From the UHGV virus genome UHGV-0288412: a stretch of 27,321 nt of DNA. One strand, written 5' to 3'. Positions 1-27,321 of the stretch are shown here, one piece after another. The stretch is from a virus. Below the pieces are notes generated by a model, which saw nothing but the letters and a program-made list of their open reading frames with translations, was not told where the DNA came from and searched no databases. Each line of letters begins with the position of its first letter. Position 1 is the stretch's first letter. The position numbers and the translations under genes are program-made.

Positions 1-300
1 ATCTGTGTTGCGTCTTATGGTGTGTTCTCTACTGGTGTTTCCATCAAGAACTTGCATCATGTTATTTTCGGTCATCCAGTGAAGGAATCAACTATCGTTC
101 GTCAGAGTATCGGTCGTGCATTGCGTAAACATGGTTCTAAGGATATTGCTACCGTTTGGGATCTTATCGATCATTTGTGTATATTCGGTCGTAACGGAAA
201 AGTCAAGCATAAAAATTATGCGGTAAAACATGCACTTGAGAGAATCCGCTATTATCTAACCGACAAGTTCAGCTATGCAACTAAAACAATTGCTATATAA
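1..300 (+). CDS. Helicase, C-terminal fragment (5' end lies outside the window)
   Basis: Frame is open from base 1 (ICVASYGVFSTGVSIKNLHHVIFGHP...); contains RQSIGRALR, which resembles helicase motif VI (Q-x-x-G-R-x-x-R) of SF2 helicase C-terminal domains. Stop at 298-300, followed by a hairpin terminator. Confidence 0.55.
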   Translation: MCVASYGVFSTGVSIKNLHHVIFGHPVKESTIVRQSIGRALRKHGSKDIATVWDLIDHLCIFGRNGKVKHKNYAVKHALERIRYYLTDKFSYATKTIAI

Positions 301-7846: not shown

Positions 7847-10273
7847 TTACATCTTACGACGCTGAACGTCTTCTATCGCCTGAGCAACAAACTTAGCGTG
7901 ACGTTTGATAGCATCCATGACCATCTTGTCTGAGCTATTAACGTTGCCGTTAATGTTCAAAGGCGCATTAACTTCAATCGGCTGAGAGTTGCCACCTGAT
8001 TTTTGAGCAGCAAGGAAGTCTTTCAAATCACCGTTAGTACGCTGATCAACTACTCGTTCACCCTTATCAAGCAACCATGTACCCTCACGCGGGATGTTAT
8101 CGATACCATCATGAGCCATACCGCTAACGTTAGTAGACTTGATGTTTGCGATGTTCCCCATGTTCTGAGAAACAGCCAATGCAGCAGCAGCGATCTTTTG
8201 TCCTGTGGTAACGTTGGTCGGATCGTTCCATGCATCGGTAGCAGCCGTCCACATGTTCACCGTCGCTTGTCCGATAGAGAATGCTTTATGAGCATTGAAA
8301 GCCATCTGCATAGCTTTAGTGTTTTCCTGCCCGAAGAGAGTCATTGCAGCAGCAAAACCGCCATACATATCATCGGCTATTGACTGTCGAGCATCAGCAT
8401 ATTTCTTCTCAATTGCAGCCATTCGTTTTTGATGGTTTTCATTGAGTTTTTCTAATGCTTCCATCCGTTTAGCCGGATCATTAATACCGTCAATCTTGAG
8501 TTTATCGGTCTTATAATCTTGTTCAGCATCCGATTTCTCTTTATCGATTGCATTAAATTTAGCAAACGGATTATTTGAGTCCTGATAGTCTAAGCTATTG
8601 GTCAACTGATTGGTTTTAAAACCATCCATTCCATGCAAAGAATCTTCAATCTGTGAATAACTTTGTTCGGTATCATTCACACGGCGCATATATTCTTCGT
8701 AGGAGATAGCCTTACCATCAAGTAACCGTTTATGGCTTTCTAACTCATTGTCCCTGATTTGTTGCAATTGTGTTAAAGCATTCAGAGCATCAACCGGATC
8801 AGCACCTAAGATCATTTTGTATACGTTTTCAGTATTCTGATCGATTAAGGATTGGCGTTTCGCGGCTGCGTCTTGCTGAGAGATTAAGCCCAGATCTAAA
8901 GCAGTATCCAAATCTTTCAAGCTGGCTTCTAACTGCTTGTTTTGAGAAGCAATAGACGCGGCGACTTGCCCTTGCAATTTAACATCAAGTGCATTCAGTC
9001 GCTTGATTGCATCCTCACGTTCTTTCTGTGCTTTTTCTGCGGCTTCCTTAGCCTTTTTAGCTGCCTCTTCCGCTTTCTTGCGCGCTTCTTCCTCGGCTTT
9101 CTTCTCGTTGCCAGACTTACCCAATGAAGCTGGTCGAGTTGGTGTAGTCGGGATAGTCAAATCACGGTTAGGATCTGCCTTGCGGGTTAGATGTTCCCCG
9201 TTATCGACAACAATCAGAGAGCCATTTTTCTTATAAGAATCACCAAAACGTTTCTTAAATCCTTCAACATCAAAGCCAGCAGTACGAGGATCGACACCAG
9301 CACCACGGATCGCGGCCTTTTCCCAATCTGCCAGATTATTCCAACGCTTTTCTTTATTGTACTTGTCAATAATCTTTTGAGCGTCTTTATGGTTGGTGTT
9401 AAGAATACCACCAGTTGCGGTCTTGCCTTCTTTATTCAGTCGATCTAATGCCCTGAATAGAGAACTCTTTTCCCAATCAATATTAAACCAGTCAAATAGC
9501 CAGTTTAAGCTATCAACCAAAGGACCAGTAATGGTCATGCCGACACCTTTCAGGTTATTTTCCAGCTTATTAATATTCTGAGAAAATTTATCATATTTTT
9601 TAGCGTTTTCTTCGGTGACGTTAACAGATTGATTCTGAATAGCGATCATCGCCTCTTGAGCACTATTATATTTCTCAAGCTGGCTGGTCATATGGCTTGA
9701 ATCACTGGATAAAGATTCCATCATGAACTTGATTTCAGCCATTGATTTTCCGGCTTTCTTCATGTCATAGAACACTTGGATCGCCGCTTTCATACCACCT
9801 TGCGGATCTGTCATGAAGTGAGCATAGTTTTCTAACTTAAGACCAACCGATTCTAAGTCATCAGCAATACCACCACCGTTAGCCCATGCATCACCCATTT
9901 TATCTAAGGTGTCTTTGTTGATATCACCAAATTTTTCAACTGTTAGGCCAGTGCCAGAAAATTCCTTTTCCAGTCTTTGAAGGGATTCAATCGAGAGTCC
10001 GGTCGCCTTAGATACTTCTGAATACTGTTTAACGTATTCCGCACCAGCTTTAGCGGCTGCAACCACTGCGGTCGCAACTAAGCCGATACCACCAGCAGCC
10101 AAACCAGCAGAGCCAGCGATCCCACGAAGAGATCCAGTCAAACCAGACAAGCCACCACCAAAATCAATACCACTTGCCTTTTCAGACAAACTATCGAGAA
10201 GGTCGGCGGCTTCACTGGTACTTCTCCTTAGACCTTTATTATCCCCTTCTATTGTTACTATATGTTTTGTCAT
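7847..10273 (-). CDS. Tail tape measure protein (808 aa)
   Basis: Long, Ala/Gly-rich N-terminus with Gly-rich hydrophobic stretch, extended charged coiled-coil segments (AEEEARKKAEEAAKKAKEAAEKAQKERE); lies immediately after the G/T chaperone pair. Confidence 0.8.
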   Translation of the reverse strand: MTKHIVTIEGDNKGLRRSTSEAADLLDSLSEKASGIDFGGGLSGLTGSLRGIAGSAGLAAGGIGLVATAVVAAAKAGAEYVKQYSEVSKATGLSIESLQRLEKEFSGTGLTVEKFGDINKDTLDKMGDAWANGGGIADDLESVGLKLENYAHFMTDPQGGMKAAIQVFYDMKKAGKSMAEIKFMMESLSSDSSHMTSQLEKYNSAQEAMIAIQNQSVNVTEENAKKYDKFSQNINKLENNLKGVGMTITGPLVDSLNWLFDWFNIDWEKSSLFRALDRLNKEGKTATGGILNTNHKDAQKIIDKYNKEKRWNNLADWEKAAIRGAGVDPRTAGFDVEGFKKRFGDSYKKNGSLIVVDNGEHLTRKADPNRDLTIPTTPTRPASLGKSGNEKKAEEEARKKAEEAAKKAKEAAEKAQKEREDAIKRLNALDVKLQGQVAASIASQNKQLEASLKDLDTALDLGLISQQDAAAKRQSLIDQNTENVYKMILGADPVDALNALTQLQQIRDNELESHKRLLDGKAISYEEYMRRVNDTEQSYSQIEDSLHGMDGFKTNQLTNSLDYQDSNNPFAKFNAIDKEKSDAEQDYKTDKLKIDGINDPAKRMEALEKLNENHQKRMAAIEKKYADARQSIADDMYGGFAAAMTLFGQENTKAMQMAFNAHKAFSIGQATVNMWTAATDAWNDPTNVTTGQKIAAAALAVSQNMGNIANIKSTNVSGMAHDGIDNIPREGTWLLDKGERVVDQRTNGDLKDFLAAQKSGGNSQPIEVNAPLNINGNVNSSDKMVMDAIKRHAKFVAQAIEDVQRRKM

Positions 10274-23658: not shown

Positions 23659-24264
23659 ATGCTAATTAATCAGCAAGAAAGAGATGAAGTAGAATTAGCC
23701 TTGTCTTGTTGTACCGATCATGAATATCGTTTGCCAGTTAAGCATAAGCATTTAAAAACCGACTACACTACATCTGGCTTTAGTCGTGAGGAAGCGAAAG
23801 AGATTTTAATAGAATTTTACCGCGATAATGGGTATACAGATATCCATAACTTCTTTAAGAAGCATAGAACATCACATACAGAGTTCCAGAGAGTCCGAGA
23901 TTGGTTTGATTTTGATATCAAGCGTTATTATCGAGTGGATGACGGTCCTATCTATCGGTTGCAGTGGAAGCCGATCCGAGAAGTGTTGAAACAGAAGAGA
24001 TTGAATCACGCAATTACACGCTATCGCAACGAGGCTTTCAAGAAAGGCTATGGTGATACAAGGGAACTATTCGTTGAACTCGCTAACGTGCGTTATAGCC
24101 ACTATTACAACGATCCTAAAGGGTTCTTTGAAGTGCTTCGCAAGGTTGATATAAGTCGGGGTACATACTATTCACGGTTGAAGAAGTACGGGATTAAGGC
24201 AGAGTTCTTTATGAGTATTGACGATGGAGAACTTTTTCCGATAAAATGTAAGTCCTCTAAATAA
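23659..24264 (+). CDS. Hypothetical protein (201 aa), divergent from the terminase gene
   Basis: Plus-strand ORF with GGGGG Shine-Dalgarno; rich in Tyr/Arg/Lys; no motif recognised. Confidence 0.45.
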   Translation: MLINQQERDEVELALSCCTDHEYRLPVKHKHLKTDYTTSGFSREEAKEILIEFYRDNGYTDIHNFFKKHRTSHTEFQRVRDWFDFDIKRYYRVDDGPIYRLQWKPIREVLKQKRLNHAITRYRNEAFKKGYGDTRELFVELANVRYSHYYNDPKGFFEVLRKVDISRGTYYSRLKKYGIKAEFFMSIDDGELFPIKCKSSK

Positions 24265-24292
24265 AGGTGAACATTCACTTTAATTTGGAGAA

Positions 24293-24526
24293 ATGACTAT
24301 GACTACTAAAGCTACTCGCGGTCGTCCTGCCCGTTTTACCCGTGAACAGATGGCTGATATTGCCTATGCTTACTATACAGCGGATCGTGGTAAGGAAGCG
24401 AAAGAACAGATTCTTAGTGAACATGGGATCTCAATCGCCCAATTCTATAAGAATATGAAGAAGTTAGACATTAAATTCTATGTTCAGATCGGTGATGGTC
24501 AGATCGTAGAAGCAACAGGTTTTTGA
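24293..24526 (+). CDS. Small putative DNA-binding protein (77 aa)
   Basis: N-terminal TRGRPARFTREQMADIAYAY resembles an HTH or AT-hook-like DNA-binding segment; followed by a canonical terminator; a small-terminase or regulator role cannot be separated. Confidence 0.4.
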   Translation: MTMTTKATRGRPARFTREQMADIAYAYYTADRGKEAKEQILSEHGISIAQFYKNMKKLDIKFYVQIGDGQIVEATGF

Positions 24527-24541
24527 GTTTTGATTCTCTTT

Positions 24542-24565
24542 GCCACTCTTCGGAGTGGCTTTTTT
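24542..24565 (+). terminator. Rho-independent terminator for the plus-strand gene pair
   Basis: GCCACTC-ttcg-GAGTGGC followed by TTTTTT. Confidence 0.75.
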
Positions 24566-24667
24566 GTATGTAAAACAATCGGCGCAAAACTGCGCTCATC
24601 TCTAAGTCATTGATTCTTTCGAAATTCTGTATTGCAGGTTTTCGGCGAAAAACTCCAGATACAAAAA

Positions 24668-24686
24668 GCCCCTGAAATTCAGGGGC
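24668..24686 (-). terminator. Hairpin terminator downstream of the Rha-like gene; built from an inverted pair of the TTCAGGGGC motif
   Basis: GCCCCTGAA-a-TTCAGGGGC flanked by A/T runs on both sides; shares the motif of the window-end repeats. Confidence 0.55.
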
Positions 24687-24694
24687 AAAAATTA

Positions 24695-25546
24695 TTACAG
24701 TCCGAAGTGTTCCAGTGATCCAGCATTCTGACGAATCAGCAAAGCAGTATTATTGACGATTGCTCGTGAGTTATTCGGCTGTGGCAATTTCAAAGTTGCG
24801 GACTTTTCTTCTTCAAGCAATCCGAGTTTTACGAGATGCGGGATAGCATCAGCAGTGAACTCGATCTGACCGTGTGCCGACATACGAGCGAACATATAGC
24901 CAGGAGGAAGCAGATCATAGCCGTTAGGCTTACCAGAAGCATCCAGACGACGCTCAAGAACACCAGCAGTACATAACCCTTTCAGAATCATTTGTACCTT
25001 TGTAGAGCCTCGTTTTTCGCCTAATAAGCGGGTTAGACTGTGCGCGTCGATGGCTTTACGGATATGAAGATCAACCAATTGTTGTTTTTCTTGAATCAGT
25101 TGTTCTTTTTCTTCTTCAAGTTTAACCGCTTCGCGCATCCAATCGAGCTTAGTCATCTTGCTTGCATCTGGGAACGGGCTTTTATTCTCTTCTTCTTTCT
25201 TTAAAAGTTCATTTTCGAGATAATTCCAACGCTCTACTAATTTACGAGTCATTTCAGGTACGTTTTGAGCAATAAGAACAATGGAATCCAATCGCCCTTG
25301 CTTACCGGAAAAAACATAATCTTTAACTGTCTGGTTTCTGTGGTTTTTAACTTCCTCCATTGGAGGGAGTTTCACAACACCTTGATTAACAAGGCGATGT
25401 AAACTACGTTCGATATTATCAAAACGTACCCCAATAAATTCCGAAATTTCACGCAAAGTCATTCGAACATCGGAATAATCTTCGTTTGCAGCTACCGGAG
25501 AAGCAAAGAAAGTCGGTGCAGTATTCATAGTTTTAACAGTATTCAT
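24695..25546 (-). CDS. Rha-family regulatory / anti-repressor-like protein with C-terminal KilA-C-like region (283 aa)
   Basis: N-terminus VRMTLREISEFIGVRFDNIERSLHRL resembles the Rha domain signature as I recall it; central coiled coil; AAGGGG Shine-Dalgarno. Confidence 0.55.
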   Translation of the reverse strand: MNTVKTMNTAPTFFASPVAANEDYSDVRMTLREISEFIGVRFDNIERSLHRLVNQGVVKLPPMEEVKNHRNQTVKDYVFSGKQGRLDSIVLIAQNVPEMTRKLVERWNYLENELLKKEEENKSPFPDASKMTKLDWMREAVKLEEEKEQLIQEKQQLVDLHIRKAIDAHSLTRLLGEKRGSTKVQMILKGLCTAGVLERRLDASGKPNGYDLLPPGYMFARMSAHGQIEFTADAIPHLVKLGLLEEEKSATLKLPQPNNSRAIVNNTALLIRQNAGSLEHFGL

Positions 25547-26103: not shown

Positions 26104-26556
26104 TTACAGCATATCTAAGCCTTCATCGTAACCGTAGAAGCCATTCTGAGAAGAGAAACAGATTGGCGCGTAGTCGTCGTCATCTTCGTCTTGTTCATCG
26201 TGTTCTGGGGCTTCCTGAGCGGGTTGTTTACCATAATCAGCCATAATCTGGTCAAGATCGGCGATCCCATAGTAAGAGCCTAAATCAACGTCATATTCAC
26301 GAACATCAAACGGCAGGTCATCACGAACAATAATTGCCGGAATGTTGTTGTATTGTTCACGACCTTCATCAGTAAAGCAGTCTACGATCACCGTAGGGCG
26401 TCCATTACGTTTAAAAGCATAGAAAGCAGTTGAGAAATTGGAGTCTTCGGAATGACGAATGATGTTATAACCACGATTAGCGAAAACATGCATCATATCC
26501 AGATTATCATCATGGTTCAGACCCAGAAGAATGAAAGGAGTTTTAGTATTGATCAT
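26104..26556 (-). CDS. Hypothetical protein with strongly acidic C-terminal segment (150 aa)
   Basis: ...QEAPEHDEQDEDDDDYAPICF...; first gene downstream of the large non-coding region on the minus strand. Confidence 0.45.
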   Translation of the reverse strand: MINTKTPFILLGLNHDDNLDMMHVFANRGYNIIRHSEDSNFSTAFYAFKRNGRPTVIVDCFTDEGREQYNNIPAIIVRDDLPFDVREYDVDLGSYYGIADLDQIMADYGKQPAQEAPEHDEQDEDDDDYAPICFSSQNGFYGYDEGLDML

Positions 26557-27235
26557 AGTGGAAATCCTCTAAAAGAAAGTGAATCAAACAAAGTACACTA
26601 TTATTTATAACGAGAAATTTTTGTCTAATTTGAAAGGAATTGGTATTCAGTCGGCTTCGCCTCCTTCATAGATTTTGATTAAATCATCATCAAAACGAAG
26701 AAGTATCTTTAGAATATAAGAATCTTTCTTTTGGAGAAATTATAATCAGGAAGCAATTTAGCAACCGAAGGTTGCAATCCCGAAGGGATACCAATACCTT
26801 TCATGATCATTAAAGTGATCTAGAATCATCTAGTAACCAGTTAACTACTATTATCTTCAAAGTGATTATTACTATCTTTCTAGAATCAGTTAGTAACTAG
26901 TTTAAAATCCCTTTCGAGAAAATCCTTTCAGAAGTGATTCTCGATGCCACGCAGTGGCGTCGCAGACGTTTGAGAGTGAGCGAAGCGAGCGAGCAAACTA
27001 GTTAATTCCTTCTAAGACCATCTAGTATCATCTAGTTTAAATTAGTGTTACTAGAAGTAATTGGTTAGCGCTTCGCGCAGTCGGGCTACGCCCTCCTAAT
27101 ATCTTTTTGGTTATTTGTTGTTTTTGGTTTTACACATGAGCGTAGCGAATGTGTTATATAATATCTATGCACGCCCGATCCCCCGCTTTTGCCCCTCGCT
27201 AAGTTAATGTTTTATAAAGAGTTTTTCTCACCAAT
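26557..27235. promoter_or_regulatory. About 680 bp non-coding, repeat-rich control region (candidate origin, pac or early-promoter region)
   Basis: No ORF of 60 aa or more on either strand; repeated TCTAGAATCA...TAGTAAC(C/T)AGTT units (26819-26842, 26879-26902), CATCTAGT repeats (27019-27039), AACTAGTT palindromes, and hairpins GCAACC-gaa-GGTTGC (26761-26775) and GCCAC-gca-GTGGC (26946-26958). Confidence 0.5.
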
Positions 27236-27240
27236 CCTTT

Positions 27241-27321
27241 TCGGGGGCAAATTTCAGGGGCAAAAATTAGATTTTCAGGGGCAATTATTGGCATTTCAGG
27301 GGCAAAAATGAGGGGCAAAAT
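27241..27321 (+). repeat. Five clustered direct repeats of (T)CAGGGGCAAAA(AT), running to the window edge
   Basis: GGGGC cores at 27244, 27257, 27278, 27299 and 27312 (spacings 13, 21, 21, 13); inverted copy TTTTGCCCCT at 27189-27198; same motif forms the hairpin at 24668-24686. Confidence 0.7.

Follow-up and report, generated by a model that had tools for sequence, protein, structure and literature searches.

A direct-repeat array and an orphan coiled-coil protein that are exchanged together in a temperate Escherichia coli phage

We analysed a stretch of 27,321 nucleotides of viral DNA (UHGV virus genome UHGV-0288412; the window below is this whole stretch) that ends inside an array of short direct repeats built around the sequence GGGGCAA. 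An earlier note on this DNA had taken the array to be the site of a multimeric DNA-binding protein. The array is confined to one place in the prophage to which the window belongs, it occurs strictly together with the gene for an orphan protein, p313, and in close relatives it is replaced by other pairs of array and protein. We consider it probable, at roughly 65–70%, that the array is made up of the cognate sites of a cassette that includes p313. The general idea of the earlier note agrees with this comparison, in which the motif is kept while copy number (6–9) and spacers vary. The fuller proposal that this swappable cassette acts as an origin/initiator module in a temperate E. coli phage is more tentative, and we hold it at somewhat less than even odds.

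The last 82 bases of the window contain five head-to-tail repeats with the consensus TTCAGGGGCAAAAAT, all on the + strand. Their GGGGCAA cores start at positions 27244, 27257, 27278, 27299 and 27312, which reproduces the 13/21/21/13 spacing described in the earlier note. Copies 2 (27253–27267) and 4 (27295–27309) are identical to the consensus (position-weight score 26.3 each), copy 3 (TTCAGGGGCAATTAT, 27274–27288) scores 22.7, copy 1 (TTCGGGGGCAAATTT, 27240–27254) is degenerate with a score of 21.3, and copy 5 (ATGAGGGGCAAAAT, 27308–27321) is cut by the window end. The inverted copy that had been reported upstream is also present, as GAGGGGCAAAA on the − strand at 27187–27197, 45 bp from the array and with one mismatch. 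It is lost or degenerate in the related loci L008/L031, L016, L019, L012/L030 and L017 and, because it is not conserved among relatives, is probably dispensable. Across the window GGGGCAA occurs nine times, against 2.2 ± 1.6 in shuffled sequences (0 of 100 shuffles reach nine), and six of the nine fall in the final 135 bp. The 11-mer at no more than one mismatch occurs six times, where 0.48 would be expected.

The window is essentially one whole metagenome contig. The protein p150, encoded at 26104–26556, is present on 13 public contigs, one of which (ENA k141_33956, 27,323 bases) is essentially the window itself; the window edge is therefore a contig end that lies inside the array. In the E. 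coli contig L002 all 11,218 bases that overlap the window match it, and the contig runs on past the window end, confirming the suspicion that the array had been truncated. Continuing the window numbering along L002 (extended coordinates), we found four further good cores at 27342, 27364, 27405 and 27419, which belong to copies 6–9 (27338–27433, + strand), and a degenerate copy, CTAGGGGATTTT, at 27389. The complete array thus has nine good direct copies and one degenerate copy in about 190 bp, with spacings of 13, 21, 21, 13, 30, 22, 41 and 14 bp between the good ones; like an iteron array, it places at least three clustered direct repeats at one site of a replicon. A position-weight scan of 59 kb, covering the prophage and its flanks, gave strong matches only in the array (nine) and in a terminator hairpin (one). 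The motif is therefore not dispersed, and the count over the whole genome that the earlier note had called for bears out a localized element. Each repeat contains an A5 tract, and several of the spacings are 21–22 bp, equivalent to two helical turns. Folding of the array as RNA gave nothing beyond shuffled controls (z −0.16 and +2.86), and this lack of RNA structure fits a site in duplex DNA.

For a comparison of about 40 related loci, drawn from IMG/VR, NCBI, Logan and ENA, we used tblastn and counted copies of the motif. The array was present in every p313-encoding locus that covers the array site, and its copy number is 6–9 across the 16 complete variants. Five loci lack p313 (L026, L027, L032, L033 and L038). 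They have just 1–3 scattered GGGGCAA sequences, and they retain the 60-residue protein p60 (up to 100% identical), p150, and the small (TerS) and large (TerL) terminase subunits. In L035 and L037 TerL is only 59% identical, yet the array is exact. More generally, the alleles of TerS, p77, Rha, p150 and p60 assort independently of the array. The two groups of TerS alleles (96–100% and 86–89% identity) are each found with several array types, and the alleles of the 77-residue protein p77 (58–100% identity) do not follow array type, which speaks against the earlier suggestion that p77 is a candidate for binding the repeats.

At the position occupied by the GGGGCAA repeats (type A), L026, L027, L032 and L033 have a type B array of 7–8 copies of TAGTGTAGGTTT, and L038 has a type C array of about 15 copies of CGGGGA(T/C/A)A. 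Type B is paired with a 331-residue protein and type C with two 333-residue proteins, all encoded 3′ of p60. The proteins of the three types have the same build, with a β-rich N-terminal domain of about 170 residues, a coiled coil, an acidic stretch and a short tail. The N-terminal domains of types B and C are 27% identical (E 2e-5), and the C-terminal tail LHDxxYxTN(F/Y)S is common to types A and B. Pairwise blastn comparison of L002 with L026, L038 and L032 showed that homology is lost in two separate places, exactly over the p313 coding sequence and over a 1.1-kb regulatory block, whose breaks fall at L002 positions 8658 and 9718–9755. The p60 gene that lies between the two swapped segments is 97% conserved.

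The pairing of array and p313 also survives exchange of the sequences around it. In L030, L017 and L028 the promoter, leader and p60 allele are all different, and the type A array and p313 are still found on either side of them; an identical p60 occurs both with type A and with type B arrays. A p313 orthologue with 50% identity (P0124, locus L041) lies in the same prophage context, with seven copies of AGGGGCAAAAAT at spacings of 22/23/19/55/20/33 and a perfect TTGACA-17-TATAAT promoter downstream. Conservation of the motif while copy number, spacers and flanks vary is the pattern that selection for a recognition sequence leaves. Here, as is expected of iterons, the repeats and the product of the adjacent gene change together, the evidence being co-variation. 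A scan of species-representative genomes with the p60 alignment found no relative, and the corresponding scan with the TerL alignment found two distant prophages without arrays.

The p313 protein has a β-rich N-terminal domain, a coiled coil of about 55 residues, an acidic linker and a short C-terminal helix. Among the 120 matches listed, the first homology search returned near-identical E. coli copies only, and tblastn against phages and plasmids gave no match. A HMMER search of 1.8 billion representative proteins found 12 p313 clusters, two of them useful (P0124 and P0128). AlphaFold2 prediction from an alignment of six sequences places residues 11–120 at a predicted local distance difference test score (pLDDT) of 70–89, with lower values at both ends of the N-terminal domain, followed by a long helix at 182–236 and a disordered tail. 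PDB sequence searches with a six-protein p313-family profile, and with p60 alone, were empty, and Pfam, PHROGs and PADLOC gave nothing for p60, p77, p150, p110 or p201 beyond coiled-coil noise. With no recognisable DNA-binding fold in p313, it is from the co-variation that we infer it to be the binder of the array.

The array lies within a 1.39-kb non-coding gap that separates two divergent operons. Downstream of the final repeat come, in order, three GTGTAGG motifs, two tandem promoters (TTGACA-17-TACACT, then TTGACA-17-TATAAT, a 12/12 match), an A+T-rich leader of about 380 nucleotides, a small hairpin, p60, an intrinsic terminator and p313. The last repeat ends about 35 bp before the first −35 hexamer, so that the array occupies about −35 to −230 relative to that hexamer. 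The A+T-richest and least stable stretch of the array-to-p60 block (82% A+T) starts about 70 bp past the last repeat and overlaps the consensus promoter and transcript start. An alternative type of p60 leader has two or three LexA-box-like sites, such as TGCTGTATGAATTAACAGTG and CACTGTATATCCGATCAGTG, 100–200 bp 5′ of p60 (L026 4581–4703, L038 4488–4592, L030 4324–4446, L027 4635–4739 and L032 3408–3530); none was found in the leader type that accompanies the window (L002). The same operon may thus be under SOS control in some variants and be controlled otherwise in others, and the LexA-box-like sites suggest a function at the time of induction rather than in the maintenance of lysogeny.

We propose a cassette of two parts. 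One would be the 6–9 head-to-tail copies of (TTC)AGGGGCAAAAAT that lie 35–230 bp upstream of a consensus σ70 promoter, and the other the operon driven by that promoter, p60 followed by p313. In this scheme p313 would oligomerise through its coiled coil, and its variable N-terminal domain would read the repeats in one orientation, so that the protein coats about 190 bp. The resulting nucleoprotein complex would form the origin/initiator module of the phage, with iterons beside an 82% A+T stretch and an active promoter, and p313 would probably also control its own promoter by feedback, in the manner of plasmid Rep proteins. Matched swapping of a recognition domain and its repeats, with a conserved tail, is known for the O/ori modules of lambdoid phages and the rep/ori modules of staphylococcal pathogenicity islands (SaPIs). 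We lean towards an origin, and thus towards an output in replication rather than in transcription alone, because no initiator is recognisable among the non-structural prophage genes scanned, where only a UvsW-like helicase was found, because several spacings are 21–22 bp, and because of the LexA-box-like sites of the alternative leader and conserved G+C-rich mini-hairpins to the left of the array. The replication initiator and the phage transcription factor that the earlier note had named both stand as possible identities of the binder, and an origin with autoregulation is slightly favoured over a pure operator or enhancer.

The likeness to the iteron origins of plasmid P1 (oriR/RepA), pSC101 (repA), lambdoid phages (ori/O protein) and SaPIs (rep-ori) extends to several features. 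Clustered direct repeats precede the gene of the protein with which they co-occur and lie near an A+T-rich stretch, which here coincides with the consensus promoter; exchange involves both the repeats and the variable domain of the protein while the C-terminal tail is conserved; and the promoter next to the repeats would make autoregulation possible. However, the repeats of the array are shorter than iterons (12–15 bp), and a 60-residue gene, the 380-nucleotide leader and a terminator stand between array and p313 gene.

Several observations weigh against our proposal. The repeats are irregularly spaced (13 to 41 bp), whereas classical plasmids have iterons at a regular 22 bp, and no DnaA box was noticed on reading the sequence. 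The p313 protein gave no Pfam, PHROG, PADLOC or PDB sequence match beyond coiled-coil noise, its AlphaFold model is of moderate confidence (mean pLDDT 62.6, N-terminal domain 70–89), and it shows no winged-helix Rep, λ O-protein or helicase-type fold. The intrinsic terminator that separates p60 from p313 bears on how p313 is expressed. In the more distant relatives from Buttiauxella and Atlantibacter the long intergenic region and its hairpins are present without a large array. The loci compared are related and hence are not independent samples, although their mosaic flanks argue for several separate recombination events. Finally, sites directly upstream of promoters and between divergent operons are equally suited to a role in transcription.

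This last point leads to the strongest alternative, in which the array is an operator or upstream array through which p313 represses or activates the p60–p313 promoter, and perhaps the divergent p150–p110–Rha operon, and the three types are heteroimmune or alternative early-switch modules. We hold a purely transcriptional role to be slightly less probable than an origin. The array ends about 35 bp before two tandem promoters, and swapping of protein and sites among near-identical phages is typical of immunity regions. The order of domains in p313, in which a putative DNA-reading N-terminal domain is followed by a coiled coil and then by a C-terminal tail, is reminiscent of the Mu repressor c and P1 C1. 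These oligomerising phage proteins have many asymmetric sites, as p313 would on our proposal, and the array resembles theirs in lying between divergent transcription units. The Mu repressor covers about nine sites in O1–O3, and several p313 homologues terminate in -AA or -VA. However, the array sites lie upstream of the −35 hexamer without overlapping a promoter, as operators would be expected to, and 9–15 sites over 190–250 bp are many for an operator. The p313 protein resembles the Mu and P1 repressors neither in sequence nor in fold, and it lacks a recognisable helix-turn-helix or any other repressor fold. The irregular spacing and the lack of large arrays in the Buttiauxella and Atlantibacter relatives count against this reading as they do against an origin. 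The LexA-box-like sites of the alternative leader would place p60–p313 expression at induction, which argues against p313 as a repressor that maintains lysogeny. In another reading, which we regard as improbable, something other than p313 would bind the array, such as p60, a host factor or the product of an unannotated gene, or the array would act through intrinsic A-tract curvature, and its link to p313 would reflect the shared ancestry of one recombination block and not recognition. The lack of a DNA-binding fold in p313 and the relatedness of the loci, in which co-occurrences are not independent trials, would be in keeping with this, and with an A5 tract per repeat at several spacings of 21–22 bp the DNA could be intrinsically bent. 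However, array and p313 are two separately swapped segments with a conserved gene between them, they stay paired when promoter, leader and p60 are replaced, and the same p60 serves two array types. Curvature alone also fails to explain why the GGGGC core is kept in the relative whose p313 has diverged by 50%.

Two further explanations have very little to commend them. The proposal in the earlier note that the array is a pac site bound by the small terminase, or a cosB-like packaging site, is contradicted by the comparison, and we give it the least credence of all. The prophage does have a λ-type gpA large terminase and a Nu1-like small subunit (phrog_57, E 2.6e-16; L002 6157–6711), and λ cosB consists of repeated Nu1 sites (R1–R3), clustered as the repeats here are. 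However, the array lies apart from both terminase genes, about 2.4 kb from TerS, with p60 and p313 between on the opposite strand, and about 3.7 kb from TerL on the other side. It is moreover independent of the terminase alleles, each TerS group occurring with several array types and the 59%-identical TerL with an exact array, and it is absent from five relatives that have TerS and TerL. It is scarcely more plausible that the repeats function at the RNA level, where they would titrate an RNA-binding protein as a CsrB-like decoy or sponge with many sites. All copies share the orientation of the downstream operon, and the array RNA is unusually unstructured (z +2.86), as would suit single-stranded binding sites. 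Against this, the convincing promoters are downstream of the array and none of these is upstream, the GGA core of CsrA sites is missing from the motif, and no RNA-level feature is common to the three array types. An Rfam search at a permissive threshold, covering 7.2 kb around the array, yielded chance-level matches only, with no match at E ≤ 1. The parC/ParR system of plasmid R1 offers another comparison, with about ten short direct repeats beside the promoter of the operon that encodes the binder, the part that we would assign to p313. It differs in that no gene for an actin-like or ParA-type nucleoside triphosphatase accompanies the array: the operon consists of p60 and p313 only, with no ATPase domain detected, the element is an integrated prophage, and p313 is not a ribbon-helix-helix protein.

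In terms of known classes, we would describe the array as a set of iterons or operators that is matched to a protein. The points of interest are the orphan protein family and its three interchangeable specificities. It is conceivable, although we would put it rather below an even chance, that p313 and its type B and C counterparts form an unrecognised family of sequence-specific DNA-binding proteins, in which a new β-rich domain is mounted on a coiled coil and reads its own array of 7–15 repeats, the whole serving as interchangeable origin or early-switch modules. If p313 does read the array, the three types would provide a compact natural set of orthogonal protein–site pairs on one scaffold, and a DNA-recognition domain would have been missed by every current profile and fold library. 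The proposal would also locate a control or replication centre for a prophage lineage without a cultured or annotated representative, in which the recognisable DNA-metabolism genes are those for a serine recombinase, a GIY-YIG nuclease and the UvsW-like helicase. In practice, the comparison removes a tempting but wrong annotation as a pac site.

The one strong match to the motif outside the array is in the hairpin at 24668–24686, which the earlier note had counted with the array. The palindrome is real, but it tracks no array type and is an ordinary terminator. The Rha-like gene has its stop codon at 24695, and immediately past it on the − strand an 8-bp G+C-rich stem (free energy −15.2 kcal/mol, z −3.6) is followed by UUUUUGUAU, giving five U residues in the transcript; this arrangement right after a stop codon marks a standard intrinsic terminator, here of the leftward Rha-like operon. 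The hairpin is found with all three array types, the same hairpin occurring in the type B and C phages L027, L033 and L038, and the type A phages L013, L014, L018, L025, L029 and L030 have unrelated terminator hairpins instead. This distribution, independent of array type, places the hairpin outside the array system by co-variation. It also led us to discard the idea that the hairpin is a distant p313 site for DNA looping. The right arm of the hairpin, and that arm only, forms with the adjoining A-tract (24678–24692) the full 15-mer TTCAGGGGCAAAAAT. By our own estimate about 5e-5 such identities of 15 nucleotides would be expected by chance, and on that estimate the identity is too long to be accidental; the repeat unit may have arisen from the terminator arm.

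The variable regulatory block spans about 1.1 kb, from 26803 to extended position 27898, its left part (26803–27321) lying within the window; it holds CTAG-rich repeats, G+C-rich mini-hairpins and the array. The CTAG-rich repeats (TCTAGAATCATCTAGTAAC, AACTAGTTA and ATCTAGT) lie between the p150 promoter region and the mini-hairpins (26810–26900 and 26990–27060). L041 and L038 retain them in part, and another regulator could bind there. The mini-hairpins, 150–300 bp to the left of the array, are short and G+C-rich with loops of three nucleotides: GCCAC-GCA-GTGGC, GCGAAGC, GCGC-TTC-GCGC, GGGC-TAC-GCCC and GCGTAGC (26946–26958, 26980–26986, 27068–27078, 27083–27093 and 27132–27154). Compensatory changes occur in L041 (GGCC/GGCC and GTCCC-GTA-GGGAC), L026 (CGGC/GCCG) and Atlantibacter (GGGGC/GCCCC), and the mini-hairpins are kept even in relatives without any array. 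They can be read as the GNA-loop type on one or the other strand. GNA-loop mini-hairpins are known from single-strand initiation sites, and those described here might be priming or structural signals. A candidate promoter facing the array, TTACAC...TATAAT at 27130–27162, was rejected, its −35 element matching at only two of six positions and the promoter scan not listing it.

Two structures in the p60–p313 transcript suggest that the operon is under attenuation or antitermination control. A small terminator-like hairpin with a T run lies just 5′ of the p60 ribosome-binding site (L002 8655–8669; extended coordinates about 27888–27902), its pairing kept by compensatory changes in all leader types (GAGCG..CGCTC, GAGC..GCTC and GGGCG..GCTCT). 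The terminator between p60 and p313 is strong and bidirectional (L002 8358–8389; extended coordinates about 28168–28199).

In the annotated E. coli genome NZ_AP027850.1 the prophage is about 36.8 kb long and splits ycdX. In window orientation it starts with attL, three small open reading frames, genes for a large serine recombinase, a GIY-YIG/CapR nuclease, a 185-residue CapR-domain protein and the UvsW-like helicase, whose gene ends in the window at 22–300. Lysis, tail and head genes, a λ-family portal gene and the gpA-type TerL gene follow, all on the − strand, then a 201-residue gene and the p77 gene (24293–24526) on the + strand, and the terminator. Beyond these lie the Rha/Ant-like 283-residue gene, a 110-residue gene and the p150 gene on the − strand, the 1.39-kb non-coding region with the array, p60 and p313 on the + strand, and at the right end a 94-residue gene and the 184-residue TerS gene on the − strand, followed by attR. 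Among the prophage genes we recognised no CI/Cro-type repressor, no primase or polymerase and no known initiator. The lineage is characterised by a large serine recombinase, split terminase genes and a UvsW-like helicase, without a recognisable repressor or initiator. The recombinase has 559 residues and integrates in ycdX, and one of the two CapR-domain proteins is fused to the GIY-YIG domain (window 22–300; L022 15849–22287).

Of 5,426 complete E. coli genomes, 33 contain the array and 32–37 the p313 gene, so that about 0.6% of these genomes contain the lineage. Megablast of the region against the INPHARED phages gave no match and thus no close relative among deposited phages, and a literature search on the integration site and on the protein accessions found no match. 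The top TerL match, at 43.7% identity, is in Escherichia phage DCP80 (L023, PQ671644.1; 141 kb, classed as a T4-like Gaprivervirus). Bases 1–26500 of this record, with a gpA-type terminase, a portal and a Nu1-like gene, are akin to the prophage lineage. T4-type genes such as motA follow after the first 26 kb or so, and the record, which may be a chimeric assembly, was uninformative.

The p77 and p60 proteins are paralogues with a common N-terminal RP-x-(K/R)-FTRE motif, and the gene of each adjoins a larger orphan gene (of 201 and 313 residues, respectively) on the strand opposite to the terminase (window 23659–24526; L002 7371–8613). These two modules and the Rha operon intervene between the TerS and TerL genes, which are consequently about 6.3 kb apart, an unusual split of the packaging genes. 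Between the p77 gene and the terminator (24530–24665) lie from none to about five short hairpin units, GGCGCAAAACTGCGC-TCATCT-(CT)AAG; the GGCGCAAAACTGCGC units expand and contract among near-identical prophages, as seen in the same interval of L008, L013, L017, L021 and L036.

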